From sequence record OQ411014.1: DNA of 64,000 nucleotides; one strand, written 5' to 3'. The notes beneath the pieces were generated by a model, which saw only the letters and a list, made by a program, of their open reading frames with translations, was not told the DNA's origin and did not search any database. Numbering within the stretch: the stretch's first letter is position 1; every line of letters starts with the position of its first letter. The translations under genes and the position numbers were made by a program. This DNA is from Escherichia phage EJP2. Positions 23,942 to 51,581 of the stretch are shown here, piece by piece.

Positions 23942-24634
23942 ATGTTTCATAACTCTATCAAAGCCAATGCATACGAAGAACCAACCAACATGACTATTCC
24001 AATCGTTGTTGAACAGACTCATAATGGTGAGCGTTCTTATGATTTACCATCTCGTTTGATGAACTCTCGTATCATCATGGTTGATACTGATTTCAACGAC
24101 CAGATGGCATATGTAATCAAAATGCAGTTGCTGTGGCTTGATAGTCAAAGTGCAGACCCAATCACTATGTACATCAACTCCCCTGGTGGTTCAGTACATG
24201 CTGGTTTAGGTATTGCTGATGTAGTTGCGAACCTTCGCTCTCCAGTACGCACTATCGTTATGGGTATGGCTGCATCGATGGGTTGTTACATGCAAAGTAC
24301 TATGGGTACTCCTGGTCTGCGTCTAGCAGGTAAACGTGCACAAATCATGGCACACCAAGTATCTTCTGGTACACAAGGTCTGATTCTAGACCAAGAGATT
24401 TCTCTGAATCATAGTAAGCGTTTGAACAAACTCTTGACTGAAGAGATTGCTGAAGCAGTAGGTATGCCGATTGAACAATTCCTTATTGACTGTAACCGCG
24501 ATTTGTGGTTAAATGCTGAAGAAGCATTGAACTACGGCACTAAAGGTTTCATCGATGGTATCTATCTGGGTAAACAAAACGAACAAGGCCAACTACTTGT
24601 CCAACGTCGTGGTGGTGTTGAGGAATGGGTGTAA
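23942..24634 (+). CDS. clpP: ClpP-family serine protease
   Basis: INSPGGSVHAG and catalytic-serine motif GMAASMG. Confidence 0.8.
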   Translation: MFHNSIKANAYEEPTNMTIPIVVEQTHNGERSYDLPSRLMNSRIIMVDTDFNDQMAYVIKMQLLWLDSQSADPITMYINSPGGSVHAGLGIADVVANLRSPVRTIVMGMAASMGCYMQSTMGTPGLRLAGKRAQIMAHQVSSGTQGLILDQEISLNHSKRLNKLLTEEIAEAVGMPIEQFLIDCNRDLWLNAEEALNYGTKGFIDGIYLGKQNEQGQLLVQRRGGVEEWV

Positions 24635-25420: not shown

Positions 25421-26212
25421 ATGAAATTTATGATTATGTCCGACACACACGGTTCCAACGATTTCATTCCAGAGGGTGATTACAGCGATGTAGTACTGAT
25501 TATTCCTGGTGACTTCGATGAAGCTAAACGACCACGTTTCCGTACTAAGATTGAATCTCTGTGTAAGCAGTTTAAGGAAGTAGTACTGGTTCCTGGCAAT
25601 CATGAGTACTACGGTTCTAATATTCACAAAGTACATAAGATTTTGAAAGAAATGAATTTTGAGATTCCCAATTTCTCATTCCTGCAAAACGACTACATTT
25701 ACATTGGTGATGTATTGATTGTCGGTGCTACACTGTGGACTGATTACGACAGAAGTAATGCCCTAGTGAAGTTCGATGCAAAGATGAAGATGAATGATTA
25801 CAAACACATTCGTCATGGTACTGAAGCTGAACCGTGGAAGACTAAACTCACAGTAGAAGATGTAGAGTACATGCATCACATTTCGAAGAAATATATCAAG
25901 ATGCTGATTGACACAGAGCGTGAACTCGTACATAATGATATCAAGGTTGTGGTAGTAACACATCACGCACCAAGTTATCAGAGTGTTTCTCCACGTTACA
26001 AGAATGATTCACTGAATGGTTGTTACTGTTCTGATATGGATCAGTACGTAGCTGATACAAAAGCGGACTTCTGGATTCATGGACACGTACATGATAACTT
26101 CGATTATTATATCGATAAGACTCGTGTTCTGTGCAACCCAAGAGGCTATGCGTCATCTATTGGAGTTCATGAAAATAAAAACTTCAATGCAAACTATATT
26201 TTTGAGGTATAA
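25421..26212 (+). CDS. calcineurin-like metallophosphoesterase
   Basis: motifs SDTHGS, GDFDE, GNHEYY, THHAP and GHVHDN. Confidence 0.7.
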   Translation: MKFMIMSDTHGSNDFIPEGDYSDVVLIIPGDFDEAKRPRFRTKIESLCKQFKEVVLVPGNHEYYGSNIHKVHKILKEMNFEIPNFSFLQNDYIYIGDVLIVGATLWTDYDRSNALVKFDAKMKMNDYKHIRHGTEAEPWKTKLTVEDVEYMHHISKKYIKMLIDTERELVHNDIKVVVVTHHAPSYQSVSPRYKNDSLNGCYCSDMDQYVADTKADFWIHGHVHDNFDYYIDKTRVLCNPRGYASSIGVHENKNFNANYIFEV

Positions 26213-29081: not shown

Positions 29082-29238
29082 ACTATATCCTTTTATAAAA
29101 AACTGGTCATAAAATGACCTACATAATATTTATGTTACTTGTTCATTTTTTGTACAGCTAATGCTAAATAAATTTATATTGACACTGATAAGCAAACATG
29201 CTAGAGTAATCATCTTACACATTCATTGTAGAGGGTAT

Positions 29239-29853
29239 ATGAAAAAAATTCCATTAGAATTGTTACAGATATTTCTTATCTGGTTGCTATGTACTGTTCC
29301 CAGTTCAGCAGAAAGTTTGTCCAGTACTATCTTTAGAGATAAAGAGAATATTGTTCATTTTGGTGCTCCAGTTTCATTCGAGGCATATAGCAAATTACTG
29401 AAAATGTATAAGATAAAACCATTTTCTGAAATTAGACTCACCAGTAATGGTGGAGAATATGATGCTGGTATGAAGATTGCTCACTTAGTTTACACCAATG
29501 ACATATCAGTCTTTGTTCCAAAGTACTGTGCAAGTGCATGTACATTTATATTTTTTGGAGCTAGGGTTGAGCACCGTGACATTGCACCAACGGCAATGTT
29601 GGGATTACATAATGTGTCGTTTGGTATGAACAACTCAACGGGTGAAGACGCGAATAACTCGTCGATAACAGTCAAGGAGGCACTTGATTTTGCACAAGAA
29701 GCAGTTGTAAGATCAGGAATGATGATTTCATTCTATTCTGCGAATGGGATACCAAGTGATGTACTACTTCAAGTATCACAAACATATGGTCAAGGTATCA
29801 TAAATGTGCAACGGGCTGACTTAGTTCGTTGGGGTGCAATACAAGCGAAATAA
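29239..29853 (+). CDS. secreted protein with possible ClpP/SppA-like fold
   Basis: start set at the ATG after RBS AGAGGG; signal-peptide-like MKKIPLELLQIFLIWLLCTVPSSA; TSNGGEYDAG and CASACTF loosely resemble ClpP motifs. Confidence 0.45.
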   Translation: MKKIPLELLQIFLIWLLCTVPSSAESLSSTIFRDKENIVHFGAPVSFEAYSKLLKMYKIKPFSEIRLTSNGGEYDAGMKIAHLVYTNDISVFVPKYCASACTFIFFGARVEHRDIAPTAMLGLHNVSFGMNNSTGEDANNSSITVKEALDFAQEAVVRSGMMISFYSANGIPSDVLLQVSQTYGQGIINVQRADLVRWGAIQAK

Positions 29854-30633: not shown

Positions 30634-30663
30634 TTGCACATTCCAAGATAATACTGATATAAT
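30634..30663 (+). promoter_or_regulatory. sigma70-type promoter with extended -10
   Basis: TTGCAC 30634-30639 and TGaTATAAT ending at 30663. Confidence 0.55.
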
Positions 30664-30716
30664 AGACTCATCCAACGCGAAGTTGGTGTAAACAAACTAC
30701 TAAGAGGACTTAGACA

Positions 30717-31790
30717 ATGAAAAACGAAAACGTATATGTATACATCGGACGCTTCCAGCCAGCACATAAAGGCCACGAAGCAGTACTTGAAAATGCAATC
30801 AAAAAAGCTGACCGTGTTGTTATTCTAGTGGGTAGTGCTGAACAAGCTCGTTCCCCTAAGAACCCGTTCACCTTTGAAGAACGCCAAAAAGTACTGGACG
30901 GTATCACAACTCGTCTTGCACAAGATGAATGGGCGAAAGGTCGCCGTGTGATGATCGACATCCTACCTGTACATGACTTCGTATACAACAACCAGAAATG
31001 GCTCATGGAAGTTCAAGAACAAGTTCGTTCCTGCACTAAAAGTGAAAACATTACTCTAACTGGTTGTCGTAAACATGGCGATGATAGTACTTTCTATCTT
31101 GAGTTCTTCCCTCAGTGGAATCAAGATTTCATTACAGAAACTACACAAGAAGATGTTGGTATCAATGCCACTCAACTACGTAACCAATTCTTCAGTACTA
31201 AACAAGTACCTGAACAAAATGTACTTACTCCTGAAACTGTAGAGTTCCTTGAGAAGTTCAGCGTAGAAAAGAAAGATGTACTAGATTACCTAGTGAAAGA
31301 ACATGCTTTTACTACAAAATATAAAGCAGACATGAAGAAACAACTACCATTTGACACAATCCCATTCCTGACTGGTGATAGTCTGATTGTCTGTGCAGGT
31401 CATGTTCTTGTAGGTATTCGTCGCTCTGAACCAGGCAAAGGTCAGTACTGTCTACCTGGTGGGTTCTTCGATGCATGGAAAGATAAAGATCAAGTTGATA
31501 CTGCTTTACGTGAACTCAAAGAAGAAACCAAAATTGATGTACCAATGAATAAACTACGCGGTTCTATTGAACGTGTAGAAGAGTTTGGTGACTTTGACCG
31601 TGACCCACGCTGGCGTGTAATCACTAAGTGCATCTACATCAAACTTGACGGTACTAAACTACCTAAAGTAAAAGGCTCAGATGATCTCAAAGGTTGCTTC
31701 TGGATGCCTATGACTGAAATTGCTAAAAATCGTGCTAACTTCTTTGTTGATCACGTTTCCATCATTGACACGTTCTTAGGAATCCTGTAA
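30717..31790 (+). CDS. natV: bifunctional NMN adenylyltransferase / Nudix hydrolase (NadM-Nudix, NatV-like)
   Basis: N-terminal YIGRFQPAHKGH (HxGH) and a C-terminal Nudix box (...ALRELKEETKI). Confidence 0.75.
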   Translation: MKNENVYVYIGRFQPAHKGHEAVLENAIKKADRVVILVGSAEQARSPKNPFTFEERQKVLDGITTRLAQDEWAKGRRVMIDILPVHDFVYNNQKWLMEVQEQVRSCTKSENITLTGCRKHGDDSTFYLEFFPQWNQDFITETTQEDVGINATQLRNQFFSTKQVPEQNVLTPETVEFLEKFSVEKKDVLDYLVKEHAFTTKYKADMKKQLPFDTIPFLTGDSLIVCAGHVLVGIRRSEPGKGQYCLPGGFFDAWKDKDQVDTALRELKEETKIDVPMNKLRGSIERVEEFGDFDRDPRWRVITKCIYIKLDGTKLPKVKGSDDLKGCFWMPMTEIAKNRANFFVDHVSIIDTFLGIL

Positions 31791-31791
31791 T

Positions 31792-32331
31792 ATGAATGTA
31801 ATTTCTCTGACTCCAGGTTTGAAAGCAGACTTGGATGCAGTAAAGGAAAGTAAGTACAATAAGATAACTAGCTGTACTGAACTAATCTTGAGTACTGATG
31901 GTTATTCTGAATGTAATCAATTGTTCGTTGATGCACTTCAACACATTGATAAAAAACTGTATCTAACCGATTTTCTTTATCTTATTCAGAGAACGTGGAT
32001 TAGCAATGCACAAAACAGAAATCACCTGAATTCAGGTGAAAGTACTTCAAGCTATGGTTATTGGAAATATAACTTCGCTGGAGTATCATCGGATACTTTA
32101 TACATTACGAACTATGTTCCGTCTGGAAATATCAGAATTGTCGATTCAGTACAACATTATGAATATTATGATATTGACACGGAAAAGCCAAGTCTGTATA
32201 CTATATCCGATATCGTAATTAGAAATGAAAAGACATTGTTCAACATGGTATTTCCAACGACTACTAAACTGTTTTCGAAGGAATACATGAAGTTCACAAT
32301 TCCATTGTCTCTGATTATGAACAACCAATAA
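31792..32331 (+). CDS. hypothetical protein
   Basis: 179-aa ORF between the two NAD salvage genes. Confidence 0.5.
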   Translation: MNVISLTPGLKADLDAVKESKYNKITSCTELILSTDGYSECNQLFVDALQHIDKKLYLTDFLYLIQRTWISNAQNRNHLNSGESTSSYGYWKYNFAGVSSDTLYITNYVPSGNIRIVDSVQHYEYYDIDTEKPSLYTISDIVIRNEKTLFNMVFPTTTKLFSKEYMKFTIPLSLIMNNQ

Positions 32332-32379: not shown

Positions 32380-33852
32380 ATGCAAAACGTAAATTTCATC
32401 CTAAACGCAGATAGTTACAAGCACTCTCATTTACTAATGATGAAAGAAGGTGTTCAAGCTCTTGAATCAAACATCATTGCTCGTAAACCATCTAAATTCA
32501 CCAGTCATGTAGTTATGATGGGTCTTCAGATTTTCGTTCAGGAATATCTGGATATCACAATTACTGCGGCTGATATCGATGAAGCAGAGATTGAAACAAA
32601 CGAACGTGGTGATGATTTTGACCGCGACTTCTGGGAACACATCGTGAATGTACACAAAGGTAAACTACCTTTACATATCCGTGCTATCCCTGAAGGTACA
32701 GTAGTTCCAGTTGGTATGCCGTTGGTTCGCTCCTTCAGTACTGACCCACGTACTATGGTACTCGCTAGTTTCGTCGAAACTCAATTACAACGTGCAATCT
32801 GGTTCCAAACTACTGTTGCATCTAATGCTCGCAGTATCAAGGAATTTCTTGCTGATACTATGGAACGTCATGCTGGTCATCGCTTTGTGGATTATCATCT
32901 ACATAACTTCGGCTGTCGTGGTGCAAGTTCCTATGAAACAGCAATGCTCGCAGGTGTAGCTCATGCCGCTCTATTCAGTGGCTCTGACTGCCTATTAGCA
33001 AACCGTAGTATCAAATACTACTACAATACTACTAAACCATATGTTAGTAGTGTTATGGCGAGTGAACACAGTGCTACATGTTCTAACTCCGATGCAGACA
33101 AGCGTGATGATTCAGCAATGGCGTTGAAGATGGTTCGCCTATGGGAAAAGAAAGTAGATAAGTTCATTGCTAATGGTTCAGTTGGTGCACCCCCAATTGT
33201 TTCTGTAGTAATCGATACTTATGATGCTTATCGCTTTGTTCGTGAGTTCATCGGTACTCGTCTAAAATCTACAATCGAAGAGATTGCAGCTAAATGTCCA
33301 AGTGCTAAACTAGTAATGCGTCCTGATAGTGGTAATCCACTAACTATGCCAATCGAAATCGTATCTATCCTTATGGAGAAATTCGGTTCAGTACTGAATG
33401 CTAATGGCATGAAAGTACTTCCATCTTTCATTGGTGTTCTTCAGGGCGACGGAGTTTCAGAAAGTTCAATCCGTGAAATCGTCCACAACCTAGAGAAAAA
33501 GAACTACTCTCTAGAGAATCTAATCTTTGGTATGGGTGGTAAAAACTCCCACGTCGAAGGTGGTCGTGATGCATATTCTTTCGCCCAGAAAGGTTGTGCA
33601 CAGCAACTAGCTGATGGTACTTGGGAAGATTTGTTCAAAGATCCTATTACTGACGTTGGGAAAAAATCCCTTCGTGGTCGTGTAACTACTTACTTGTGCA
33701 AAGAAAGTGGGAAGATGATGGCTGAACGAATCGAACTACAAGAAGTAAATCCTTTCTTAGAAGATATGATGGTTGACATTTTTGTAAATGGTGATATCAT
33801 GAATCTAAGCTCTTTTGATGATGTACGTGCTCGTGCGAACAAGGGATTGTAA
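32380..33852 (+). CDS. nadV: nicotinamide phosphoribosyltransferase (NAMPT/NadV)
   Basis: 490 aa; N-terminal NADSYKHSH and overall pattern match the NAMPT family. Confidence 0.8.
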   Translation: MQNVNFILNADSYKHSHLLMMKEGVQALESNIIARKPSKFTSHVVMMGLQIFVQEYLDITITAADIDEAEIETNERGDDFDRDFWEHIVNVHKGKLPLHIRAIPEGTVVPVGMPLVRSFSTDPRTMVLASFVETQLQRAIWFQTTVASNARSIKEFLADTMERHAGHRFVDYHLHNFGCRGASSYETAMLAGVAHAALFSGSDCLLANRSIKYYYNTTKPYVSSVMASEHSATCSNSDADKRDDSAMALKMVRLWEKKVDKFIANGSVGAPPIVSVVIDTYDAYRFVREFIGTRLKSTIEEIAAKCPSAKLVMRPDSGNPLTMPIEIVSILMEKFGSVLNANGMKVLPSFIGVLQGDGVSESSIREIVHNLEKKNYSLENLIFGMGGKNSHVEGGRDAYSFAQKGCAQQLADGTWEDLFKDPITDVGKKSLRGRVTTYLCKESGKMMAERIELQEVNPFLEDMMVDIFVNGDIMNLSSFDDVRARANKGL

Positions 33853-33860
33853 TATCAATG

Positions 33861-33884
33861 GGGAGTCTTAGTACTCCCTTTTTT
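33861..33884 (+). terminator. intrinsic terminator
   Basis: stem GGGAGT/ACTCCC followed by a T6 run. Confidence 0.55.
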
Positions 33885-33895
33885 GCGAGGTTTAT

Positions 33896-34534
33896 ATGTG
33901 GTCTAAAGTAAAAGATAATCTAGATGCGTACATTATCCCACTACACGATGTGGTATGGCTACGAGATGAAGTACGTAAGGCAATGACCGAAGGTTATGCG
34001 TTTCCAGCAGAAGAAGATGAAATTCAAAAAGATGCATCAGTAGTTTCTGATGAAATGATTATCGGTTATCCAGATCCAGAAAATGAAAATATGTTCATGT
34101 TTGGATTCAAAGATGATGATTGTCTGGACGACCAAAGTATCATTGACCACATTACACATCGCTGTTGGGAAGATATTAGTGAAGCTGGTATTGTTTCATT
34201 TGGTGAAATGGAAAGTTTTTCAGCAGTTGTGTATAATGAAGATGTTCCAAATTTCCGTAAGCACAAGACAGAAGTGGATAACTTCCTAACTCATTTGATT
34301 GGTCGATCTATTGTTAGTGATGAGCCATCATTCCTCAATAACACTGCGGAATGTAAAGAATTCATCTTAGAACGATATGATTATGAAAATATGAAACGTA
34401 CTGCGACGAATAAGTGGGGCAACTTCAATTATCGTTTATTTGAAAATGATGAAGGAGATGTCGTGACAATCGTTACATACAATGCTAAACTGATCTCCTA
34501 CTATAACTTCAGATACAAAGACGAGGATCTATAA
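33896..34534 (+). CDS. hypothetical acidic protein
   Basis: 212-aa ORF. Confidence 0.5.
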   Translation: MWSKVKDNLDAYIIPLHDVVWLRDEVRKAMTEGYAFPAEEDEIQKDASVVSDEMIIGYPDPENENMFMFGFKDDDCLDDQSIIDHITHRCWEDISEAGIVSFGEMESFSAVVYNEDVPNFRKHKTEVDNFLTHLIGRSIVSDEPSFLNNTAECKEFILERYDYENMKRTATNKWGNFNYRLFENDEGDVVTIVTYNAKLISYYNFRYKDEDL

Positions 34535-34535
34535 A

Positions 34536-34748
34536 ATGGTTTTGACTTATCTTTTCATGTTCGGTATGTACGCAGTAACCACTGGTTGTGCATGGTTCCT
34601 GACTTCAATTACATTCATTGGTTGGGCCAATCGTGAAGGTAAAATCAAATACGGCTTGTGGTTCCGTGAGTTCAGTCCTTTTGTAGTACCACTATGGATT
34701 ACAACTATTGTAATTTATATTCTCATCCCAGTAGTATTCTTGGGTTGA
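34536..34748 (+). CDS. small membrane protein
   Basis: 70 aa, two hydrophobic helices. Confidence 0.5.
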   Translation: MVLTYLFMFGMYAVTTGCAWFLTSITFIGWANREGKIKYGLWFREFSPFVVPLWITTIVIYILIPVVFLG

Positions 34749-34788: not shown

Positions 34789-35391
34789 ATGACTTGTATT
34801 ATCGCTTTTACTGATGGTAAATCATCCTTCATCGCAGGTGACAAACTAGGTTCCAACGGCTTTACTAAATCAGTAATGGTTGAACCAAAAGTCTTTGAGA
34901 AAGAGTTTCATCGTGTTAGTACCAATGATGAAGGTACTGTGCGGACGCGTGAAACGATGGCACTCGGTTATACTACGTCATTTCGTATGGGACAACTTCT
35001 GTCTTACAATCTAGTACTGCCTGACCAAGATGCGAATCAATCCTTCAGTCAGTACCTGGTTCAGAAAGTAATTCCACTTATTCGTCATATGTTCAAAGAT
35101 GAATGGGGTGCACGTGATAGCTCACAAGATATTGGTGGTGGTCAGTTCATTATTCTGCATAACCACACTATCTACGAAGTTCAAGGTGACTTCTCAGTAC
35201 TGCAACCTAAGACACAAATTACTGCTGTAGGTTCAGGTACTTACCATGCAATTGCAGCTATGCAAGCACTACAAAGTGTTTCATCTGATACTAAGAAAGA
35301 TCTACTACATTACGTACCAACGATTTTTGATATTGTCAGTACTAATGTAACTTCAGTATCTGCTGAACATGATGTATTGCATTACAAATAA
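34789..35391 (+). CDS. Ntn-hydrolase, HslV/proteasome-beta-like
   Basis: N-terminus MTCIIAF with Thr2 as the candidate nucleophile, followed by SFIAGDKLGS, resembling the HslV start TTIV...AGDGQ. Confidence 0.45.
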   Translation: MTCIIAFTDGKSSFIAGDKLGSNGFTKSVMVEPKVFEKEFHRVSTNDEGTVRTRETMALGYTTSFRMGQLLSYNLVLPDQDANQSFSQYLVQKVIPLIRHMFKDEWGARDSSQDIGGGQFIILHNHTIYEVQGDFSVLQPKTQITAVGSGTYHAIAAMQALQSVSSDTKKDLLHYVPTIFDIVSTNVTSVSAEHDVLHYK

Positions 35392-35582
35392 TGGTTGATA
35401 TATTTTTCATTGTAATGATGATGCTTGGTGTATTCGGGTTGATTGCAATTACCCGAATCACTGATAGACCATACACAGATAACATTGAACGCGTTTGTAT
35501 GTTTCTACTAAGTACTATAATGTTGGTTATCGTTGGTGTAGTAGGTTCTATGTTTGCAGAACTAATTCTAATTGCGTACTGA
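35391..35582 (+). CDS. small membrane protein
   Basis: 63 aa, hydrophobic. Confidence 0.45.
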   Translation: MVDIFFIVMMMLGVFGLIAITRITDRPYTDNIERVCMFLLSTIMLVIVGVVGSMFAELILIAY

Positions 35583-35605
35583 TGTACGCTTTTTAAGGAG
35601 TACTT

Positions 35606-35839
35606 ATGGACTTAGCAGATTTGGTTTATGTTGTATCGTTAGTACTGTACGGTATTTGTATAGTACTGACTATGTTAGAATGGAGTACTTGGAGTGATGG
35701 TTTCAAAGAACTAAATGGTGAGTTTACCTCTAAATACTATGCAATTAGTTATTTTATCATGAAGTTAGGTATGATTGGAATGTATGGTATTTTGGGATAT
35801 CTATTCTACTTCTTACCTGAACATATGAGATTATTTTAG
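35606..35839 (+). CDS. small membrane protein
   Basis: 77 aa, hydrophobic. Confidence 0.45.
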   Translation: MDLADLVYVVSLVLYGICIVLTMLEWSTWSDGFKELNGEFTSKYYAISYFIMKLGMIGMYGILGYLFYFLPEHMRLF

Positions 35840-35849
35840 GAGATATAAA

Positions 35850-36281
35850 ATGGCAGGAAAAGGATATTGCAGCCTAAAACTTGATAAAGCACAAGCAAAG
35901 GAATTGAAACGGATTTTAAAAATCGGTGGCGTTGAATGCTTAGACCCTTCGGATTTGCATTGTACTTTAATGTACGATGAAAGTAATCCTAACATCAAAA
36001 TGCTCAAGAACACAAAGACTTATAAAGCTAAAGTAACTGGTGTTAGTAAATTGGGTGATGCGATTGTATTGGATTTGGAATCCCCTGGCATCAAGAAACG
36101 TCATCAGGAATTGAAGAATGCTGGTTATAAGCACTCATTCCCTGAATTGAAAATTCATATGAGCATCAACTACGATCCAAAAAGTACTGATAAGGATTTA
36201 CTAGAACTCTTTATCAAATTGAAGGGTATTCCTTCAGTACTGATATTTGGTAATGAAAAATTTGAATCTCTAAAGCCGTAA
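35850..36281 (+). CDS. 2H phosphoesterase superfamily protein (LigT/CPDase-like)
   Basis: two H-x-T/S-x motifs (LHCTLMY and IHMSINY) with typical spacing. Confidence 0.5.
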   Translation: MAGKGYCSLKLDKAQAKELKRILKIGGVECLDPSDLHCTLMYDESNPNIKMLKNTKTYKAKVTGVSKLGDAIVLDLESPGIKKRHQELKNAGYKHSFPELKIHMSINYDPKSTDKDLLELFIKLKGIPSVLIFGNEKFESLKP

Positions 36282-36291
36282 GGAGTATATA

Positions 36292-37050
36292 ATGGACGTG
36301 AATAAATTTCTTGACAACAAAGGACAAAAGCGTCTGTTAGTACTAACTGGTGCGGGTTTCAGTGCGGAATCTGGAGTTAGTACATTTCGTGATGCAGAAG
36401 ATGCCCTATGGGAAGGTGTGAAGATTAACGATGTATGTAACATTGCGAGCTTAGGCTTTAAGTACGCACAAGTACATGCATTCTACAACACACTAAGAAC
36501 TATCATCAAGGACAAAGAGCCTAACGAAGCACACTATGAAATTAGCGTTATGGAGTCAATGTACGGGGATAACTTCCTACACATGACTGCTAATATCGAT
36601 GATTTATATGAGCGTGCTGGTGGCACTGCTATGCACCTTCATGGCAACATCAAAGAAGTCATTGAGAACTATTCAATGGCACATAACGACTTTACAGTAC
36701 TGGATGTTGGATATGAAGTTTATATTCCAAAGGAAGGTGTATTTGCTAAACCTAATGTAGTATTCATTGGTGAATCAGAGCGTTATGTGAATAACCAGCG
36801 TATTCCGTTGTATGAAGAACGAAATAAAGTACTGGCATCCTTGACAGACTTAGATACCGTTGTTATCATTGGTTCATCGGATACAATCCTGAAGTGGAGT
36901 TCGTTGGTTGGTTTAGGCACACCAGCTTATACCATCAACATCAACACAAGAAAGAATGACACTGACTGGGCGTTCGATAAGAAGATTTACAAGCCAGTAA
37001 CTAAAGCGTTATTGGAATTGAGGGAGTTAGTTCTTACACGGATGGGATAG
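36292..37050 (+). CDS. Sir2-family NAD-dependent deacylase / ADP-ribosyltransferase
   Basis: NAD-binding motif GAGFSAESGVSTFRD and catalytic HG motif (HLHGN); no zinc-ribbon cysteines seen. Confidence 0.75.
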   Translation: MDVNKFLDNKGQKRLLVLTGAGFSAESGVSTFRDAEDALWEGVKINDVCNIASLGFKYAQVHAFYNTLRTIIKDKEPNEAHYEISVMESMYGDNFLHMTANIDDLYERAGGTAMHLHGNIKEVIENYSMAHNDFTVLDVGYEVYIPKEGVFAKPNVVFIGESERYVNNQRIPLYEERNKVLASLTDLDTVVIIGSSDTILKWSSLVGLGTPAYTININTRKNDTDWAFDKKIYKPVTKALLELRELVLTRMG

Positions 37051-37059
37051 GAGTGAGTT

Positions 37060-37614
37060 ATGGATTTTACAGAGATACCATTCGGACAACGCAGTGAAAG
37101 ATTTGACTGTGCGTTCGTTTGGATCTACGCTAAGAATTGCACACCATACAAGGATTATCCATATAATGATATTCCTAACGTATCTTTAGTACTGACAGAG
37201 TTACGCTTTGATGGTCTAATGGGTGCGGTTGGTGGAGCAGTTGAGGATGATGATCCTTCATTGGAAGTGGCAGTGCAACGTGAAGCCTTAGAGGAAATAA
37301 ACTTTTCTCTTGACATTACTAATCTGAAACCGTTATTATCATTACGTTCCCCATACGGAGCACATAACCATAGTTTCTCGTACGAAGTACAGTACGATGA
37401 GCTACTAGAGATTCGGAACAACGCATACAAAGGTGCTCACTTCAGTGCTGAAAATGCGGGTGTAAATCTGATTCACGTATGTCGCTATACGAAGGGAAGA
37501 GGGAACGAATGTGGTTACAATAACATTCTTACACAGAATTTTATTGGCACATCCAAACTGGAACTAGAGCGTTTAGTTCATAATGAAAATTTACTAATAA
37601 ATTACCTTGCATAA
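37060..37614 (+). CDS. Nudix hydrolase
   Basis: Nudix box GAVGGAVEDDDPSLEVAVQREALEEINF. Confidence 0.65.
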   Translation: MDFTEIPFGQRSERFDCAFVWIYAKNCTPYKDYPYNDIPNVSLVLTELRFDGLMGAVGGAVEDDDPSLEVAVQREALEEINFSLDITNLKPLLSLRSPYGAHNHSFSYEVQYDELLEIRNNAYKGAHFSAENAGVNLIHVCRYTKGRGNECGYNNILTQNFIGTSKLELERLVHNENLLINYLA

Positions 37615-37624
37615 AGGATAAAAT

Positions 37625-37957
37625 ATGTATAAGATGTTTATAGACGACCTTCGGGATGCAGAGAAGCATTACCCAAATGAAGGATTCATCGTCACAAGGA
37701 CTTACAATGAAGCTGTACAGTACGTACAAGAACATGGTCTACCTAGTTTTGTTTCATTCGACCATGACTTGGGCGACACTGACAGTACTGATGAGAAGAC
37801 TGGATATTCTTTTGCTAAGTTCCTCATCGAGTACATGATTGATAACGATTTGCGGGAACCGTTTGAGTACTTTATTCACAGTGCTAATCCAGTTGGTGCA
37901 GAGAATATCAAACAGTACTTGCAAAATGGGTTCAACTTTATCCAAGGGCAAGCATGA
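37625..37957 (+). CDS. hypothetical protein
   Basis: 110-aa ORF. Confidence 0.5.
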   Translation: MYKMFIDDLRDAEKHYPNEGFIVTRTYNEAVQYVQEHGLPSFVSFDHDLGDTDSTDEKTGYSFAKFLIEYMIDNDLREPFEYFIHSANPVGAENIKQYLQNGFNFIQGQA

Positions 37958-38244
37958 AAGTAATAACATTTATTCTGATTTTGATTGTTGTTGTTGGTAT
38001 TCGCCTTAAAATAGCGGAGAACCAATACAACACTGAAAGACTGAATATTACGAAAGAATCTGGAACAGTAGTTGCAACTGGACAATGCAACAAATACACT
38101 TGTGCTTACTCTGTAAAAACCTCTAGTGGTTCTACAGTGAACAGTACTGGTGACACTCCGGTAAGTCTCGGTCAAATCGTATACCGTGAATGCTGGGAAG
38201 AAAGGGTCAGGGGTCCGCGTTGTTACGTAGACTTTAGACCATAA
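37954..38244 (+). CDS. small secreted or membrane protein
   Basis: N-terminal hydrophobic MKVITFILILIVVVGI and several cysteines. Confidence 0.45.
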   Translation: MKVITFILILIVVVGIRLKIAENQYNTERLNITKESGTVVATGQCNKYTCAYSVKTSSGSTVNSTGDTPVSLGQIVYRECWEERVRGPRCYVDFRP

Positions 38245-38269: not shown

Positions 38270-39724
38270 ATGAAAAAATATGCTATTGATACAAACGTAC
38301 TTCTAAGCGATCCAAACGCAGCAACCGCTTTCAAAGGTGCTACAGTGGTTCTACCATTTACAGTACTGGAAGAAATGGACTCCATCAAGAGTCGTGGTGT
38401 TGACGTTAGCCGTGATGCACGTGTAGCAATTCGCAATATCAGTAACATCCTGGAAGACGCGTCTCATGAAGAGATTAGTACTACTGGGGTTGATATGTCC
38501 AAACTACATCCACATTTAGATTCCGACAGTCGTCTAATGATTGTTACATCTGAAGAAGCTGAAGCACTTCTACGTGTTGCAGGTATTGATAAGTCCGATG
38601 CTGAACTTACAAAAGTTGCTACACTAATGAACAGTACTGTACCGGATGACAAGATTATTCTTGTTGCTCTAGCTACAGAATCAGTACTGGTTACTCGTGA
38701 TATCAACATGCGTATCAAAGCTATGGCTTATGGTGTTGAAGTTCAGGACTATCGTAGTGATGTTACTATTTCCGATTCTGACCTACTACATATTGGGAAC
38801 CACAAACTAGAGTTTTCGTTCTGGGATACCATTGCGGATCGTGGTTTAGAAGTTTTCAGTACTAAAGAAGGTCGTAACACTTATCAACTAATTGCTAAAG
38901 ATGCAATTCAGGATCTACTACCAGAAAATCTATGCGTTGGTGACTATCTATATGATGACACTGATTTGCTAATGGTATATGATGGAGAAGGTGATCGTGA
39001 GTTCTCTGATGGTGAAGTTGATGACACAGTGTACTCCGTGTTCATTGATGTTGGTCAACACAGTGCAATGCGTACTAAGATTTGGGATATCAAAGCTAAG
39101 AACGTGAAACAAGCAATGGCAATCAACAGTATTCTTGACCCTAATGTTCACTTGACAGTACTGTTAGGTTCTGCGGGTACAGGTAAGACTTTGATTACTC
39201 TAGCATGTGCACTAGAACTAACATTAGAGAAGCGTCAGTACGATAAAGTTATTTTCTCTAAAACCCAAGACTCACAGTTTGATGAAATTGGTTTCTTACC
39301 AGGAACCGAAATGGAAAAAATGCTTCCGAATTGTGGACCTGCACTGGATGCATTGGAATTCCTTCACAAAGATGATGCTAACCCTCAAGGTTCAATTGAA
39401 GAAATCATCAAACGTAATGTTGTACAATTCAAAGCACTGAACTTTATTCGTGGACGTTCGTTTACCAATACAATTCTAGTTGTTGATGAATTCCAAAACA
39501 TTACTCCGGCTCAAGCTAAAACTATCTTGACACGGGCAGGAATGAACTGTAAAGTTATCATCATGGGTAACTTAGCACAGATTGATAGTAAGTTTATCAG
39601 TTCTGTAAACAGCGGTTTGACCTATGTAGTTGAGAAGTTCAAAGATTGGGAAGGTTGTCGTATCATCGAACTCGAAGGTGTTGTACGTTCTGCACTAGCT
39701 GAATTCGCTGAAGAAAATATGTAA
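38270..39724 (+). CDS. phoH: PIN-domain / PhoH-like ATPase fusion (PhoH2-type)
   Basis: N-terminal PIN-like YAIDTNVLLSDP; Walker A LLGSAGTGKT and conserved PhoH C-terminal region. Confidence 0.8.
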   Translation: MKKYAIDTNVLLSDPNAATAFKGATVVLPFTVLEEMDSIKSRGVDVSRDARVAIRNISNILEDASHEEISTTGVDMSKLHPHLDSDSRLMIVTSEEAEALLRVAGIDKSDAELTKVATLMNSTVPDDKIILVALATESVLVTRDINMRIKAMAYGVEVQDYRSDVTISDSDLLHIGNHKLEFSFWDTIADRGLEVFSTKEGRNTYQLIAKDAIQDLLPENLCVGDYLYDDTDLLMVYDGEGDREFSDGEVDDTVYSVFIDVGQHSAMRTKIWDIKAKNVKQAMAINSILDPNVHLTVLLGSAGTGKTLITLACALELTLEKRQYDKVIFSKTQDSQFDEIGFLPGTEMEKMLPNCGPALDALEFLHKDDANPQGSIEEIIKRNVVQFKALNFIRGRSFTNTILVVDEFQNITPAQAKTILTRAGMNCKVIIMGNLAQIDSKFISSVNSGLTYVVEKFKDWEGCRIIELEGVVRSALAEFAEENM

Positions 39725-39757
39725 TATATTGGGGGAGTTTCAATACTCCCCATTCAT

Positions 39758-39971: not shown

Positions 39972-40001
39972 TTGAGACAAAACTCAATACTATGATATAA
40001 T
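39972..40001 (+). promoter_or_regulatory. sigma70-type promoter with extended -10
   Basis: TTGAGA 39972-39977 and TGaTATAAT ending at 40001. Confidence 0.55.
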
Positions 40002-40031
40002 AGATACATCAACAACAAAGAGGAAATAAAC

Positions 40032-41426: not shown

Positions 41427-41798
41427 ATGGTTCCCTATTTTTATGAGGTCAATATAATGAACGTGAATACCAGTACTGAACGATTGAAAATTTACGAAAC
41501 ACTAGAACGATATCTTGATATTGATGAAGTTAGTCCACAATATATTATTGACATTTTACAAAAACACGTCGATAATAATCCAGGAAAATGCCTTGTATGT
41601 TATTGCAACGAAGATATGTTAGAAATAACTGCTTCACACTTGGAAACTGATGAAGAATATAACGCCAGACAAAACTTTATCCAACAGCAGCAAGAACGAA
41701 AAGAAACTGAAAAACACATGAAAGCACTGATGAAGAAGTCATCACTCAGTACTGAAGAAAAAGCACTCCTAATCAAATACATTGAGGAAAACAAATGA
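41427..41798 (+). CDS. hypothetical protein
   Basis: 123-aa ORF. Confidence 0.5.
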   Translation: MVPYFYEVNIMNVNTSTERLKIYETLERYLDIDEVSPQYIIDILQKHVDNNPGKCLVCYCNEDMLEITASHLETDEEYNARQNFIQQQQERKETEKHMKALMKKSSLSTEEKALLIKYIEENK

Positions 41799-42568
41799 AT
41801 CGTGAAAAGATGCTTTATCATGCAAAAGAAAAGGGTTGTTTGAATTTTGATATCTACACAATGAAACGTGAAACACGTGATAACCTGGACTTCCTTTTGG
41901 ATGGTGACTTTTTAGATTTCAAAACAGACAGTGCATTCGGTAATGATCGCAACAGTAAATGGCAGGAATACGTAATCACCAATAGGGGTATTGCATTACT
42001 GGGAGTGTATCGTCTTGAGTATGCACATCTCAATGAACGTGATACTGAAAAACATATCGGTCGCATCGAACAACTTCGTGAATTACTTGATGTTGTTGAT
42101 GTAAAGCTAACTGATATTGAATATGCATTTACGAATAACCAACGTAAATCAGTGAACTACATGAACACCAACTATCCTACTGGTGCAAGTACATTAGTTC
42201 ACAAGATAAAAGAACAAGAAAAAAGTGTTGACACAACTCCCAATGATGAGCTATCATTACTCTCGTTGTTTGAGTTCAGTACTGAATTAGGTAAAAAAGG
42301 TTCCAGTACTAAACGCTCTGACGATTATGTCCTGAAGAAGTGTATGGAAGAACTTGGTGAGTTAGCTCTTGAAGTTACTATCAGTCAAGGTGAATCCTAC
42401 AAAGAACCAGGCAAAGATGGTGTCAAAGGTGAAGCAGTAGATTTAGCGATTTGTGCACTTGACATGTTCGCATTACAATGTAATAATATGAGTCCAGACG
42501 AGATAGAACGTGAGTTCTTGACTTATATGACAACTAAAGTGAATAAGTGGAGAAATACTCTAAAATGA
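41795..42568 (+). CDS. hypothetical protein
   Basis: 257-aa ORF with ATGA overlap. Confidence 0.5.
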   Translation: MNREKMLYHAKEKGCLNFDIYTMKRETRDNLDFLLDGDFLDFKTDSAFGNDRNSKWQEYVITNRGIALLGVYRLEYAHLNERDTEKHIGRIEQLRELLDVVDVKLTDIEYAFTNNQRKSVNYMNTNYPTGASTLVHKIKEQEKSVDTTPNDELSLLSLFEFSTELGKKGSSTKRSDDYVLKKCMEELGELALEVTISQGESYKEPGKDGVKGEAVDLAICALDMFALQCNNMSPDEIEREFLTYMTTKVNKWRNTLK

Positions 42569-44760: not shown

Positions 44761-45318
44761 ATGACTATTATCGTGAATTTAGTAGGTGGTCCGTGCTGTG
44801 GAAAAAGTACTACTGCTGCTGGACTATTCAGTACTATGAAACTTCAAACAACTAACAAGGTTGAACTTGTTACTGAAGTTATCAAAGACCATGTGTACGA
44901 TGAGAACAAAGGTGCAATGCAAGACCAGGTTCTTCTTACTGCTGAACAGAATCACCGATTCAAACGTTTAGATGGTAAAGTTGATTTTGTAATCTCGGAC
45001 GCTTCCCTTTTGAACGCAATCGTGTATAATCAGTTCTACAATCAAAACAAAGATATCAGTACTGAACTATCTCGTAAACTATTCGAGAAGTACGATAACG
45101 TTGTATTCTTCCTTCCACGTAAGCCTCAATATGATGCATACGGACGTACACAGTCAGAAGAAGATGCACGTTTCATCGATGAACTTTTCGAGAGTGTGTT
45201 CTGGGAATATTCTATTCCTTTCATTGATATGCGTGAATATACTCACGATGTTCTTCCAGAAAAGATTCTTGAGAAACTTCAAGAGAAATTTGGCAATACT
45301 GTAACCCTACGAGGCTAA
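44761..45318 (+). CDS. P-loop nucleoside/nucleotide kinase-like protein
   Basis: N-terminal Walker A VGGPCCGKSTT; 185 aa. Confidence 0.45.
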   Translation: MTIIVNLVGGPCCGKSTTAAGLFSTMKLQTTNKVELVTEVIKDHVYDENKGAMQDQVLLTAEQNHRFKRLDGKVDFVISDASLLNAIVYNQFYNQNKDISTELSRKLFEKYDNVVFFLPRKPQYDAYGRTQSEEDARFIDELFESVFWEYSIPFIDMREYTHDVLPEKILEKLQEKFGNTVTLRG

Positions 45319-48881: not shown

Positions 48882-51581
48882 ATGACTAAAAGAATTTATG
48901 GAGGCTTAGACGTTACTCATAACGTAACAGTTCAGGGCAAAAGGACAGTACAAGGTATCAATAATCAAGTATTCGATGCGAATGGTGATATGAAGATTAA
49001 TACCTATACTCAACAGGAATTACTCGATATTGTTAGCTTAATGCCAATATCACACTACGGTACTCACAACTACTTACCTGCTGGTGTTAGTGGGGACTTT
49101 AATGGTGCAGCGGAGAACCCAGCACAACGTAGAAACAAAATCCTACTGGAGAACGATGGTACACTAGTAATGCTACGTGCTGGTACAAACGGCAGTGTAG
49201 AAGGTTTATTCTATGCTTACCTACCAAATGCACTATCAGTTACTGATTTAGGTAGAGGTGTAAACACTGGTCGTCAGTACAAGCCAGGTTATTTTGGTAG
49301 TACTAAAACTGCTTTCGGTTTGTATAATACAGATGAGAACATTCTTCTAGGAAGATATTCTGATTCGTCAAATGGCAGTACTGGATGGTTTATTTCCATT
49401 ACTAACGGAACACTAGATGACACACAACATAATGGTTTCTTCTTGAATGCTTATACTGATATTGCCCCTCAAGGTGGTGTTGAATATGCAATGATGGCAG
49501 AAGATGGTTCAATTTACGTATTCAGTGTAGATACAAGTAATAACGAATTTAATATTGCAGTTGTTAGAGTTACTTTCAATTTGACGAATAAAACTTACAC
49601 AGCGTCAAGAATCACTGGTTGGACAACCAAGACGTTCTATAATACTACATATTCAGCAGATACTAATATTGTAGTGACGAAGAAAGTAAACTCAACTAAT
49701 ATCGCTGATAAGCCATATATGTACGTTCCGAATGGACTACTTGGTTTAGGTGTATACATGACGTCAATTGACTTGTGTGTAGCACAACAGCCAGGTACAC
49801 AGAACTTCCGCTTTAGAGTTAATGGTGATGCGTGGGCTACTATGGCAACGTATAATACCAGACCACAGCACAGTTATAGTTTCAACTTCAATATGAGTAC
49901 TAAACAATGTACGCTGGATGCAGGGAATGACATTGGTTCAAACGCAGCACCATTTATTGTTACTAATACAGGTTCACAATTAATTGCTTCTGGTAACGTA
50001 ATCAACCAAGATGATTTATATAATCACGGTGGGTGGAGAAACATTTATAGTTCTTACTATTACTTGGATATTGGTACAGTATTCTGTACTACGAGTCCTA
50101 ACTTGTCAGAACCATTGGGGATTGAAAAAGCAACATACCCAGCACAAAGTGTTTACAGTATGCTTAACGTAAGAGCAGTCAATGCATCAGCATTCAATAA
50201 AGGGAATCTTGGTCCTTCGTTCGGTTCAGCAGTTGGTTCTTACATTAACGGCGTAGAATTACTACCAGGTAACAGTACTAAACAATTCTCTCGTTCTTCT
50301 GGTACTGGTGCATTTAGACCATCATATGCAGTACATGCTGCTTCACCTACCTTTACGTTTAAATCTCTTTCAAGAGGTACAATGAAAGGTTATGAGCCTA
50401 CTGCTGAACGTGATTTCATTACAGATAATATAAACAACCGTATTTTCATTAGTACTGTATCTGGTTCGAATGTTACGACAAATGGTGGGATTTTCATGGT
50501 TGGTCAACGTTATTCACAGTCTTTGTCATTTGACAAACATGGTGTTGGTACTGGAACAATCTCGGTCACTGATTCAGTACTGGTAAATTTCAGAAATTCT
50601 GAATATGCAAAAGTACCTGCTTCATGGAATCTTTCTACAGCAGCAACTAAAGATATGACACTATTTGTTCCACAACAAACTGATATTCCTGCTTTTGTAA
50701 TGTTAAGTACTGTTACTACTGGAAATAAAAACTATATTAAGATTGTGGAAGTGAACGTTAATACCAGAAGTGGTAATATTACTTCAATTAGTTTTAAGCG
50801 TAATGTAATTGAAAACGTTTATGGTGATAGTTTTACACCAAATGGTGCTGGTGGTTTTGCTTCATCTTCTGTAGGTTTAACAATATATGATGGCGGTTCG
50901 TTCTACTTTATTGGTGGTTCAGATCCTTTATCTCACCCAACAATTGGCAATACGAATACACATCAATTCAGAGCTATTGTTACTAAAAGTACTGCACAAT
51001 TTGACAGCTTTATTATTTCAGGTTCACATGCTAGTTATGAACAGGGTATTCAACCTGCTGCTCTTCCTGGTATTGGCTTTGGGTATTTCCAAGCAATTGA
51101 CTACTCAAACAAAATGACATTCCAGAAATGTGGTACTACTGTTGCTGAATATAATGCATGGACAGCAATTGGTGATCCAATTAACGTAGTTTCACAAGAC
51201 GTTGCACAAGGATTTGTTGTTTACTTCAACGAAGAAACACCAGTAATGCTCAGTGGTAAGTCATTTACGATGCCAGTTCAAAGTGTTGATTTGAAAACTA
51301 TTAAAGCTAACCCAGCGAATACGACATTCCACATTTATGTGAGAATGAACCAAGGTAATGCAGAATATCATATAACTACTGAAGTTATTTCCGAAACTGG
51401 TAGTACTGCATATAACGTATTCTGGATTGGTACTGTTACTACGGATGCTATCCAAATCTCGACTATTAATGTATTCAAGCGTTCTCGTTTGGATGTATTT
51501 GGTGCATCACTTGAACCAACCGGATCATCATTCCCAGTGAGTTATGGTCTACCATCAGGCAACGGAACAATTAACTGGTAA
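48882..51581 (+). CDS. tail fibre / receptor-binding-like structural protein
   Basis: 899 aa, S/T/N/G/Y-rich and poor in charged residues; C-terminal ~110 aa module shared with the next two genes. Confidence 0.6.
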   Translation: MTKRIYGGLDVTHNVTVQGKRTVQGINNQVFDANGDMKINTYTQQELLDIVSLMPISHYGTHNYLPAGVSGDFNGAAENPAQRRNKILLENDGTLVMLRAGTNGSVEGLFYAYLPNALSVTDLGRGVNTGRQYKPGYFGSTKTAFGLYNTDENILLGRYSDSSNGSTGWFISITNGTLDDTQHNGFFLNAYTDIAPQGGVEYAMMAEDGSIYVFSVDTSNNEFNIAVVRVTFNLTNKTYTASRITGWTTKTFYNTTYSADTNIVVTKKVNSTNIADKPYMYVPNGLLGLGVYMTSIDLCVAQQPGTQNFRFRVNGDAWATMATYNTRPQHSYSFNFNMSTKQCTLDAGNDIGSNAAPFIVTNTGSQLIASGNVINQDDLYNHGGWRNIYSSYYYLDIGTVFCTTSPNLSEPLGIEKATYPAQSVYSMLNVRAVNASAFNKGNLGPSFGSAVGSYINGVELLPGNSTKQFSRSSGTGAFRPSYAVHAASPTFTFKSLSRGTMKGYEPTAERDFITDNINNRIFISTVSGSNVTTNGGIFMVGQRYSQSLSFDKHGVGTGTISVTDSVLVNFRNSEYAKVPASWNLSTAATKDMTLFVPQQTDIPAFVMLSTVTTGNKNYIKIVEVNVNTRSGNITSISFKRNVIENVYGDSFTPNGAGGFASSSVGLTIYDGGSFYFIGGSDPLSHPTIGNTNTHQFRAIVTKSTAQFDSFIISGSHASYEQGIQPAALPGIGFGYFQAIDYSNKMTFQKCGTTVAEYNAWTAIGDPINVVSQDVAQGFVVYFNEETPVMLSGKSFTMPVQSVDLKTIKANPANTTFHIYVRMNQGNAEYHITTEVISETGSTAYNVFWIGTVTTDAIQISTINVFKRSRLDVFGASLEPTGSSFPVSYGLPSGNGTINW

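Follow-up and report, generated by a model that had tools for sequence, protein, structure and literature searches.

The stretch of DNA analyzed here, referred to as the window, comprises 64,000 nucleotides of Escherichia phage EJP2 (sequence record OQ411014.1), and we followed four of its genes, which encode an HslV-like peptidase, a 2H phosphodiesterase, a sirtuin (Sir2), and a Nudix hydrolase. An earlier note, made from the sequence alone, had grouped them with neighboring salvage genes for nicotinamide adenine dinucleotide (NAD+) as an island for NAD and ADP-ribose processing. The four open reading frames (ORFs) were found on the plus strand exactly where the note had placed them, with their catalytic motifs intact. 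They are located downstream of the NAMPT (NadV) gene, as claimed, at distances of 0.9-3.8 kb from its end at position 33852, and not all within the 3 kb that had been given. The extent of the cluster was underestimated, and three invariant partners were missed: a cREC (cyclic-phosphate-processing receiver-like) protein, a membrane protein, and a PIN-PhoH protein. The four genes are part of a block of about 9 kb, from 30.6 to 39.8 kb, that lies between two predicted host-type early promoters and consists of a core of five invariant genes, an NAD+ module that is present as a rule, and, between these, accessory genes (Table 1).

Next, we placed the block in its lineage. The source phage is a Rak2-like jumbo phage; the window has a G+C content of 36-40%, and nearly all its genes are on the plus strand. 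A megablast search of the region against GenBank phages gave no match, and relatives were found through blastn and tblastn, at nucleotide identities of 72% or less. The closest was Erwinia phage Hallingskeid, with 72% nucleotide identity and amino-acid identities of 76% for Sir2, 75% for the 2H protein, and 79.5% for NadV, followed by the Salmonella phages Munch/7t3/PHA46, Serratia phage BF, GAP32, CBB, 121Q, and RaK2, all of them jumbo phages of 340-380 kb. The genome paper of Sharanji, a 121Q-like phage, makes no mention of these genes. Proteins 99% identical to the HslV-like, Sir2, and 2H proteins were detected solely on Logan contigs (assemblies of the Sequence Read Archive) of up to 106 kb.

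The window proteins were then compared with 18 related jumbo-phage loci; a locus search with a single sirtuin sequence gave nothing, and loci were obtained with an alignment as the query. The genes for Sir2, Nudix, cREC, the membrane protein, and PIN-PhoH were in the same order in every one of the 18 loci that extended far enough (one contig fragment, L016, stops inside the Nudix gene), and co-location in this phage lineage was beyond chance. The 2H gene was absent at this position from 121Q and RaK2, which retain the rest of the core. The HslV-like gene was limited to the window, the Munch/PHA46-like loci, and 121Q, being absent from the BF-like loci, RaK2, L004, and Hallingskeid. Similarly, NatV and NadV were absent from the 121Q locus, and the close NadV matches included no 121Q-like phage. 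For each of three parts, the HslV-like gene, the 2H gene, and the salvage pair, there are relatives that have Sir2-Nudix without it, so the block is a concatenation of separable modules and not a single unit. Of the proposed island, the part that stood is the central place of NAD+ and ADP-ribose chemistry; its unity with the HslV-like, 2H, and salvage genes did not.

Table 1. Genes and predicted transcription signals of the block, with genes for RNA-end and related enzymes elsewhere in the window.
Feature	Position	Strand	Basis
Rnl1, T4-type RNA ligase 1	15727-16866		RNA_lig_T4_1 + T4_Rnl1_C
Pnkp	17570-18499		Kinase + HAD_PNKP phosphatase
Calcineurin-like phosphoesterase	25421-26212
Predicted sigma-70-type early promoter, extended -10	30635-30666	+	TGCACA-17-TATAAT; motif TGATATAATAGA; 61 nt before NatV
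NatV-like bifunctional NMN (nicotinamide mononucleotide) adenylyltransferase + Nudix (candidate NARP2 step 2)	30717-31790	+	Pfam CTP_transf_like + NUDIX
179-aa protein between NatV and NadV	31792-32331	+	Start 1 nt past NatV stop
NadV / NAMPT (candidate NARP2 step 1)	32380-33852	+	Pfam NAMPT_N + NAPRTase; PHROG 448, E 2e-129
Intrinsic-terminator-like hairpin GGGGAGT...ACTCCCT + T-tract	33860-33885	+	Directly after NadV stop
212-aa protein	33896-34534	+	PHROG 36508, no assigned function
70-aa hydrophobic protein	34536-34748	+	Hydropathy
HslV-like Ntn-hydrolase peptidase, accessory gene	34789-35391	+	PHROG 1040 'peptidase HslV family', E 9e-21
Small membrane protein	35391-35582	+	Hydropathy
Weak hairpin + T-tract between the two small membrane genes	35574-35594	+	Hairpin scan
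Small membrane protein	35606-35839	+	Hydropathy
Acb1-family 2H phosphodiesterase, lid-less variant	35850-36281	+	Pfam Acb1 PF23474
Zinc-less phage-clade sirtuin	36292-37050	+	Pfam SIR2 (PF02146), E 1e-19
NUDT16-like Nudix hydrolase	37060-37614	+	Pfam Nudt16-like PF22327, E 2.6e-17
cREC protein	37625-37957	+	Pfam cREC_REC PF20274, E 6e-26
96-aa protein, N-terminal membrane anchor	37954-38244	+	PHROG 14661 'membrane protein'; hydropathy
PIN endoRNase + PhoH (PhoH2-like RNA helicase)	38270-39724	+	Pfam PIN_4 1e-21, PhoH 4e-43
Terminator-like hairpin past PIN-PhoH	39732-39751	+	Stem identical to 33860 hairpin
Predicted extended -10 promoter of the following transcription unit	39972-40004	+	Promoter scan
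RlaP, RNA-repair-pathway Pol-beta nucleotidyltransferase	55721-56968

The sirtuin has the NAD-binding and catalytic motifs intact (GAGFS 20-24, TFR 31-33, N101, D103, and HLHG 115-118, with H117), and its sole cysteine is C49, so it has no four-cysteine zinc ribbon; both traits had been predicted. The TQNID motif is changed to TANIDD, the equivalent of CobB Arg95 is Leu, and an additional insertion of 8-11 residues is found after FxGE. The structure model, with a predicted local distance difference test (pLDDT) score of 93.5, was nearest to E. coli CobB (template modeling score, TM, 0.77-0.87), and the best NCBIfam CobB/deacylase score was 104 bits, with a cut-off of 318. A defense-type SIR2 NADase (ThsA, DSR, SIR2-HerA, or pAgo-associated) was rejected as an identity, as no PADLOC match was obtained at E ≤ 0.01 and the fold was nearest to CobB. 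The sirtuins of Rak2-, rV5-, T5-, and KVP40-like phages have all lost the four zinc cysteines, share VCN and T[AST]N[VI]DD, and carry a D-[VI]-G-Y motif instead of the first CxxC; these proteins are the 'distinct clade' of viral sirtuins in the passage that Iyer et al. (2022, PMC9503650) devote to them. By tblastn, this zinc-less sirtuin was found in 991 of 50,697 phage records (about 2%).

The Nudix protein scored 63.7 bits against a cut-off of 27 and has the Nudix-box motif REALEE at 74-79, which bears out its assignment as a Nudix hydrolase. Its best PDB matches were NUDT16/X29, and the substrates of the characterized enzymes of this type are RNA 5' caps and ADP-ribose linked to polymers. 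The cREC protein (91.4 bits, cut-off 27) contains DDLRD at 7-11, FDHDLG at 45-50, and HSANP at 85-89, and its acidic residues D7-D8 and D46/D48 are invariant. The start of the gene for the 96-aa membrane protein overlaps the cREC stop, and the PIN-PhoH protein has a Walker A motif, GSAGTGKT, at 300-307 and a match to the NCBIfam model 'RNA 5'-3' helicase PhoH2' (E 3e-44, under the cut-off). The core genes overlap or are spaced by 9-25 nt and, in Serratia phage BF, Nudix and cREC are a single 302-aa ORF (L009, 10802-11710). The cREC domain was defined and linked to RNA ligases by Iyer et al. (2021).

The sirtuin, 2H, Nudix, cREC, and PIN genes are all present in one orientation between 35850 and 39724, and this locus is homologous to that of BF. 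The BF neighborhood (AQW88637.1) was described computationally by Iyer, Burroughs, Anantharaman, and Aravind (2022; PMC9503650, section 3.7.3), who in that section predict NAD-dependent RNA repair, with a KptA/Tpt1-like sirtuin acting on RNA 2'-phosphates and partners that process cyclic phosphates or ADP-ribose cyclic phosphate (ADPr>P). Both the neighborhood and its RNA-repair reading are thus already in print in that section, and the window locus is a further, moderately divergent example of the neighborhood catalogued in silico for BF and relatives.

The company kept by the sirtuin and cREC in other phages was surveyed next. In the rV5-like phage ECP26, a sirtuin of the same clade is found in the order Pnkp-Rnl1-Sir2, and in the T5-like phage TrudiRoth, the gene after Sir2 encodes a phosphatase of the HAD_SAK_2 ('Swiss Army Knife RNA repair') type, and PhoH is close by. 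Among 80 viral loci inspected at ±7 kb around the sirtuin, 26 had the arrangement PhoH-Sir2-HAD_SAK, 2 had Sir2-HAD_SAK but no PhoH, and another 2 had PhoH-Sir2 but no HAD_SAK; Rnl1 adjoined Sir2 in 11 loci, single loci had RlaP or Pnkp, and 15 showed no recognized partner. At least 339 viral contigs contained cREC, and Rnl1, Pnkp, or RlaP was within 7 kb of it in 29 of 65 non-Rak2 viral loci. RlaP was near cREC in nine unrelated viral loci, and a calcineurin-like phosphoesterase, homologous to the one encoded in the window, was directly downstream of cREC in 3/65 (L070-L072). Neither Sir2 nor a NUDT16-like Nudix nor a 2H gene was beside cREC in any of the 65 non-Rak2 loci, indicating that the full five-gene combination is lineage-specific. 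Since the sirtuin and cREC independently associate with RNA end-healing and end-sealing enzymes in unrelated phages, a model in which the core acts on RNA ends was favored. In the window itself, Rnl1 and Pnkp form a complete tRNA-repair pair located 17-20 kb upstream of the cluster, and no tRNA genes were found.

Upstream of the core, NatV, the intervening ORF, and NadV probably constitute an NAD+ reconstitution pathway (NARP) of type 2, a function assigned by homology to the KVP40 enzymes; at the sequence level, Nampt does occur together with Nmnat. NatV matched the NCBIfam model 'bifunctional nicotinamide-nucleotide adenylyltransferase/Nudix' with an E of 4e-79, under the equivalog cut-off, and NadV shared 76-80% identity with its counterparts in BF-like and Munch-like jumbo phages. 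The 179-aa protein encoded between them, for which Pfam, PHROG, and NCBIfam gave no match, is weakly homologous to a protein encoded at this position in the Munch/PHA46-like loci; possibly, the salvage module includes it as a third component. NARP2 function has been demonstrated for the KVP40 enzymes, NARP2 has been shown to defeat Thoeris and DSR2 (Osterman et al. 2024), and jumbo phages have already been framed as encoding NAD+ synthesis plus NAD+ consumers (Li et al. 2024).

The neighborhood of the sirtuin includes NAD+-rebuilding genes in other lineages too. In contig L170, NatV, NadV, and Sir2 are immediate neighbors in that order, as are RlaP, NadV, and Sir2 in L175, and NatV or NadV is within 6 kb of the sirtuin in L174, L181, L189, and L193. 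In Salmonella phage PVP-SE1 (L194, 72126-80989), a NARP1-type pair, formed by the phosphoribosyl-pyrophosphate-synthetase-like gene 97 and the nicotinamide phosphoribosyltransferase-like gene 96, is divergent from a phosphoesterase-Rnl1-cREC-like-Sir2-DNA ligase operon. In TrudiRoth, NARP3 is not adjacent to the sirtuin. The same sirtuin clade therefore adjoins NAD+-rebuilding genes of two types, NARP2 in Rak2-like phages and NARP1 in PVP-SE1, an observation that is possibly new and suggestive only; sirtuin/NARP adjacency was not found stated in those parts of the literature that were examined.

The predicted transcription layout separates the salvage genes from the rest of the block. The exact 12-mer TGATATAATAGA is present on the plus strand solely at positions 1866, 30655, and 39993 of the window, each copy with a TTGACA-like -35 element, and none of 100 shuffles reached 5 matches at one mismatch or less. 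These copies suggest that the host RNA polymerase transcribes early units with lengths of at least about 9 kb. An equivalent promoter, TGATATAAT, is found just before the NatV homologue in most of the loci inspected (L001-L005, L007, L009, L014, and L015), and the next strong promoter in most inspected relatives comes only past PhoH. Inside the block, the gaps between genes go from -4 to 48 nt, and generic sigma-70-like matches showed no excess (46 vs 40.5 expected in shuffled sequence). A GC hairpin with a U-tract after the NadV stop and a hairpin after the PhoH stop were found in every relative examined with differing stem sequences, indicating that it is the function of the hairpins that is conserved. 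The salvage genes look like a transcription unit of their own, as far as can be judged from these signals, and, given the conserved terminator after NadV, co-expression of the downstream genes with the salvage module would need read-through or an unrecognized type of promoter. As a separate observation, the two hairpins of the window share the stem GGGGAGT/ACTCCC, at 33860-33878 and 39732-39750, and none is expected in shuffled sequence.

The 2H protein scored 63.8 bits with the Acb1 model of Pfam (cut-off 27) and gave a weak match to 2_5_RNA_ligase2. Its two catalytic motifs, H37-C-T39 and H103-M-S105, align with those of T4 and FBB1, and the best PDB sequence match was Acb1 of Erwinia phage FBB1. 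When the AlphaFold model (pLDDT 87.6) was analyzed with Foldseek, the top match was the phosphodiesterase 9Q2G of Burkholderia phage BCSR5 (TM 0.82, E 1e-8), on which no paper was found in the literature, and FBB1 Acb1 (7T26/7T27) was matched with an E of 6e-8; the 2H call of the earlier note was, on these grounds, not spurious. An identity as RNA 2',3'-cyclic phosphodiesterase of the LigT/CPDase (cyclic phosphodiesterase) type was rejected, as LigT and plant CPDase structures were about 1000-fold worse than those of the Acb1 type. Nonetheless, the protein might also act on RNA 2',3'-cyclic phosphate (RNA>p).

In FBB1 Acb1, the tetrad is H44, T46, H113, and T115, E141 contacts adenine N6, the base-stacking aromatics are Y12, W74, F107, and W147, and a C-terminal lid spans residues 145-152 (Hobbs et al.). 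The window protein keeps Tyr6 and Phe97, equivalent to Tyr12 and Phe107, has Leu at the Trp74 position and, in the alignment with T4 57B/Acb1 and nt-1 gp57B, terminates short of the lid and Trp147. Glu136 is invariant in our alignment A3 and falls in the same column as the Glu in 'DREY' of T4; it was assumed to be the equivalent of FBB1 E141, the full FBB1 sequence lying outside the alignment. The homologue of Vibrio phage nt-1 is annotated gp57B and is beside genes 1 and 57A, like T4 57B, i.e., Acb1. The homologues of phages GAP32 and CBB are named 'Anti-CBASS protein Acb1' in UniRef, and for that of Aeromonas phage AerS_266, which adjoins an anti-Thoeris gene, the annotation reads anti-CBASS nuclease. 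Most likely, the 2H enzyme cleaves cyclic or 2',3'-cyclic-phosphate nucleotides, and the substrate is uncertain because the Acb1 lid is lacking.

The HslV-like protein had 328 homologues, several of them annotated HslV by one source. In 18 diverse homologues, M1, T2, D18, K34, and G148-S-G150 were invariant and, with the Met removed, T2/D18/K34 take the HslV numbering Thr1/Asp17/Lys33. The profile of these 18 sequences matched E. coli HslV with a hhalign probability of 96% and an E of 3.7e-9, so that this call was not spurious either. No match to Pfam Proteasome (PF00227) was found, the NCBIfam HslV score was 25.8 bits with a cut-off of 137, and the phmmer search of PDB gave a marginal E of 0.026. 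These comparisons identify the protein as a genuine Ntn hydrolase of a divergent phage family, and not an HslV orthologue. A Pfam scan of 30 window ORFs revealed no HslU-type ATPase, and no tie of the peptidase to NAD or ADP-ribose was detectable; its gene is accessory and drops out of the NAD island. Jumbo-phage members of the family carry an insertion of about 14-16 residues, EKEFHRVSTNDEGTVRTRET, at residues ~38-57, which is lacking in shorter homologues from other viral contigs. The window also encodes a phage ClpP protease (23942-24634, E 2e-44) and, at 29161-29853, an additional ORF that weakly resembles ClpP; together with the HslV-like peptidase, these make at least three protease-type genes inside 12 kb. 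The spacer genes at 33896-34748 were found in some relatives only.

Some genes past the block were also observed. A protein with a C-terminal MazG-like pyrophosphatase domain is encoded at 41795-42568 (PHROG 1247, E 7e-17); in Rak2-like loci of sufficient extent, a homologue lies downstream of PIN-PhoH, and in KVP40-like loci one precedes the sirtuin by 3 kb. The ORF at 44761-45318 encodes an AAA_28 P-loop kinase (PHROG 'thymidylate kinase') with a weak match to the kinase half of NadR-type proteins, and close homologues are 1-2 kb from a phage sirtuin in five other viral loci, e.g., L158; candidate identities are the 'nucleotide kinase' in the second neighborhood type of Iyer and a nicotinamide riboside kinase. 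Two long ORFs, 48882-51581 (899 aa) and 52188-54941 (917 aa), gave no Pfam match at E ≤ 0.001.

Collectively, these data are consistent with an invariant core of sirtuin, Nudix, cREC, membrane protein, and PIN-PhoH that most likely works on damaged RNA ends, a reading in which we have moderate confidence. The sirtuin would ADP-ribosylate, in an NAD+-dependent reaction of the Tpt1/KptA manner, a terminal or 2'-phosphate on RNA, and would release nicotinamide and ADP-ribose (cyclic) phosphate. The cREC protein, plus the 2H enzyme where present, would open cyclic phosphates, and the Nudix enzyme would yield AMP and ribose phosphate by splitting either the ADP-ribose product or an ADP-ribose/NAD cap. 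PIN-PhoH would unwind or trim the RNA, Rnl1, Pnkp, and RlaP from elsewhere in the window would heal and seal the ends, and the neighboring NARP2 would recycle the nicotinamide.

Several points weigh against this RNA-end reading. T4-type repair by Pnkp and Rnl1 requires no 2'-phosphotransferase. Synteny in a single phage lineage is weak evidence alone, and the survey counts ignore kinship among contigs. RNA-repair genes, NARP, and Acb1 are all counter-defense functions and could cluster as an anti-defense island without common substrates. The nearest solved and cellular relatives of the sirtuin are protein lysine deacylases (CobB), and the protein keeps the catalytic His and the hydrophobic FxGE tunnel. 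Moreover, the gene for the nearest zinc-less cellular homologue, in Pseudochelatococcus lubricantis (L031, 8001-9496), overlaps by 4 nt a gene for an LplA-B_cat lipoate-protein ligase, which points to protein acyl-lysine chemistry. Finally, no experimental paper on phage sirtuins or cREC was found in the literature.

The alternative that survives best, which we nevertheless consider unlikely, takes up these sirtuin traits: the enzyme would modify proteins, as a conventional lysine deacylase or ADP-ribosyltransferase, and would remodel those of the host or the phage at an early stage of infection. The Nudix enzyme would then clear O-acyl-ADP-ribose, NARP2 would remove inhibitory nicotinamide and resupply NAD+, as in the eukaryotic NAMPT-sirtuin axis, and cREC and PIN-PhoH would be unrelated neighbors. 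The top sequence and structure matches were E. coli CobB and SIRT5 with acyl-peptides bound, GAGxS, TFR, N101/D103, and His117 have all been retained, translational coupling links the gene of the cellular homologue to the ligase gene, and NAD-rebuilding genes adjoin the sirtuin in several lineages. However, the protein has lost the zinc ribbon, a contributor to the peptide cleft, substitutions of the TQNID Gln and of the residue equivalent to CobB Arg95 extend throughout the phage clade, and every NCBIfam deacylase model was far under its cut-off. In three lineages, it is RNA-end enzymes that recur as partners, and not protein-modification genes, and the Nudix-cREC fusion links Nudix to a predicted phosphoesterase.

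It is also rather improbable that the genes share no biochemistry and that an early-gene or anti-defense region was simply inherited as a block, each gene being independent. The region is syntenic over the lineage, flanking genes included, the accessory genes are variable, and a conserved terminator divides the block, all of which would fit. Against this are the fusion of the Nudix and cREC genes, the invariant five-gene core with its tight or overlapping spacing, and the recurrence of the sirtuin and of cREC, each beside RNA-end enzymes, in unrelated phages. Least probable, and indeed very unlikely, is a battery against defense signals, in which 2H would cleave CBASS cyclic oligonucleotides, Nudix and cREC would cleave Thoeris-type signals derived from ADP-ribose, and NARP2 would offset NAD+ depletion: the Acb1 family membership and annotations of the 2H enzyme, the anti-Thoeris gene beside the AerS_266 homologue, the action of NARP2 against Thoeris and DSR2, and the host-type early promoter that apparently drives the block speak for it, but it is not obvious what an NAD+-consuming sirtuin would contribute to signal breakdown, the 2H gene can be dispensed with, its product has neither the Acb1 lid nor two of the four base-stacking aromatics, the partners of cREC are RNA ligases and not sponges or signaling-pathway nucleases, and NUDT16-type enzymes are known for caps and polymer-linked ADP-ribose. 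Thus, of the degradation of defense signals that the earlier note had envisaged, the membership of the 2H protein in a signal-degrading family stood, and the context of the sirtuin and cREC pointed to RNA-end repair instead.

The RNA-end reading can be extended to a closed NAD+ cycle, a speculative proposal that we hold to be doubtful. The zinc-less sirtuin would be the first NAD+-using RNA terminal-phosphate remover or capper other than Tpt1, coupled to NARP both physically and in function: it would yield nicotinamide and ADP-ribose phosphate, cREC, 2H, and Nudix would process the ADP-ribose part, and NARP2 in the window, or NARP1 in PVP-SE1-like phages, would rebuild NAD+. This proposal arises because two non-equivalent NAD+-rebuilding pathways adjoin the same sirtuin clade in different lineages, and a Tpt1-like reaction would be expected to yield nicotinamide and a derivative of ADP-ribose, which the NARP pathways would take as inputs. 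If true, NARP pathways would serve a phage NAD+ consumer besides countering host NADases. If the core does act on RNA ends at the expense of NAD+, it would represent a new enzymatic route of phage counter-defense against RNA-cleaving immunity and would explain why phages place NAD+-rebuilding genes alongside.

When compared with known systems, the proposed chemistry is closest to that of Tpt1/KptA, which together with a 2H cyclic phosphodiesterase performs NAD+-dependent removal of RNA phosphates in tRNA splicing and repair. This is a working analogy only, as Tpt1/KptA has the ADP-ribosyltransferase (ART) fold, and the window candidate is a sirtuin, of unrelated fold. With E. coli CobB and the class III sirtuins, the window protein shares the Rossmann core, the NAD-binding motifs, and the catalytic His, but it lacks the zinc cysteines and does not reach the NCBIfam cut-offs. 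The 2H protein shares with Acb1 (T4 gp57B; FBB1, PDB 7T26/7T27) the compact 2H fold and the HxT/HxS pair, at an identity of about 20% to T4 Acb1, and the T4/nt-1 gene, beside genes 1 and 57A, is in a different context. The components of T4-type tRNA repair, Pnkp and Rnl1, and RlaP are all encoded in the window; in other phages they adjoin the same sirtuin clade and cREC, whereas the window's copies are distant from the cluster.

The salvage pair corresponds to the NARP2 of Vibrio phage KVP40 (Lee et al. 2017; Osterman et al. 2024), with the same two enzymes and the same domain architectures, but in the window the pair has an intervening ORF, its own predicted promoter and terminator, and a position directly upstream of the sirtuin block, whereas no NAD-salvage gene is within 7 kb of the KVP40 sirtuin. 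The best counterpart of the whole is the Serratia phage BF locus, which has the same five domains in the same order, with identities to the window of 54% for 2H, 46% for Sir2, 67% for Nudix, 70% for cREC, and 67% for PIN-PhoH. BF fuses Nudix and cREC, whereas the window has them as separate genes and carries, upstream, the HslV-like gene and three small membrane ORFs.

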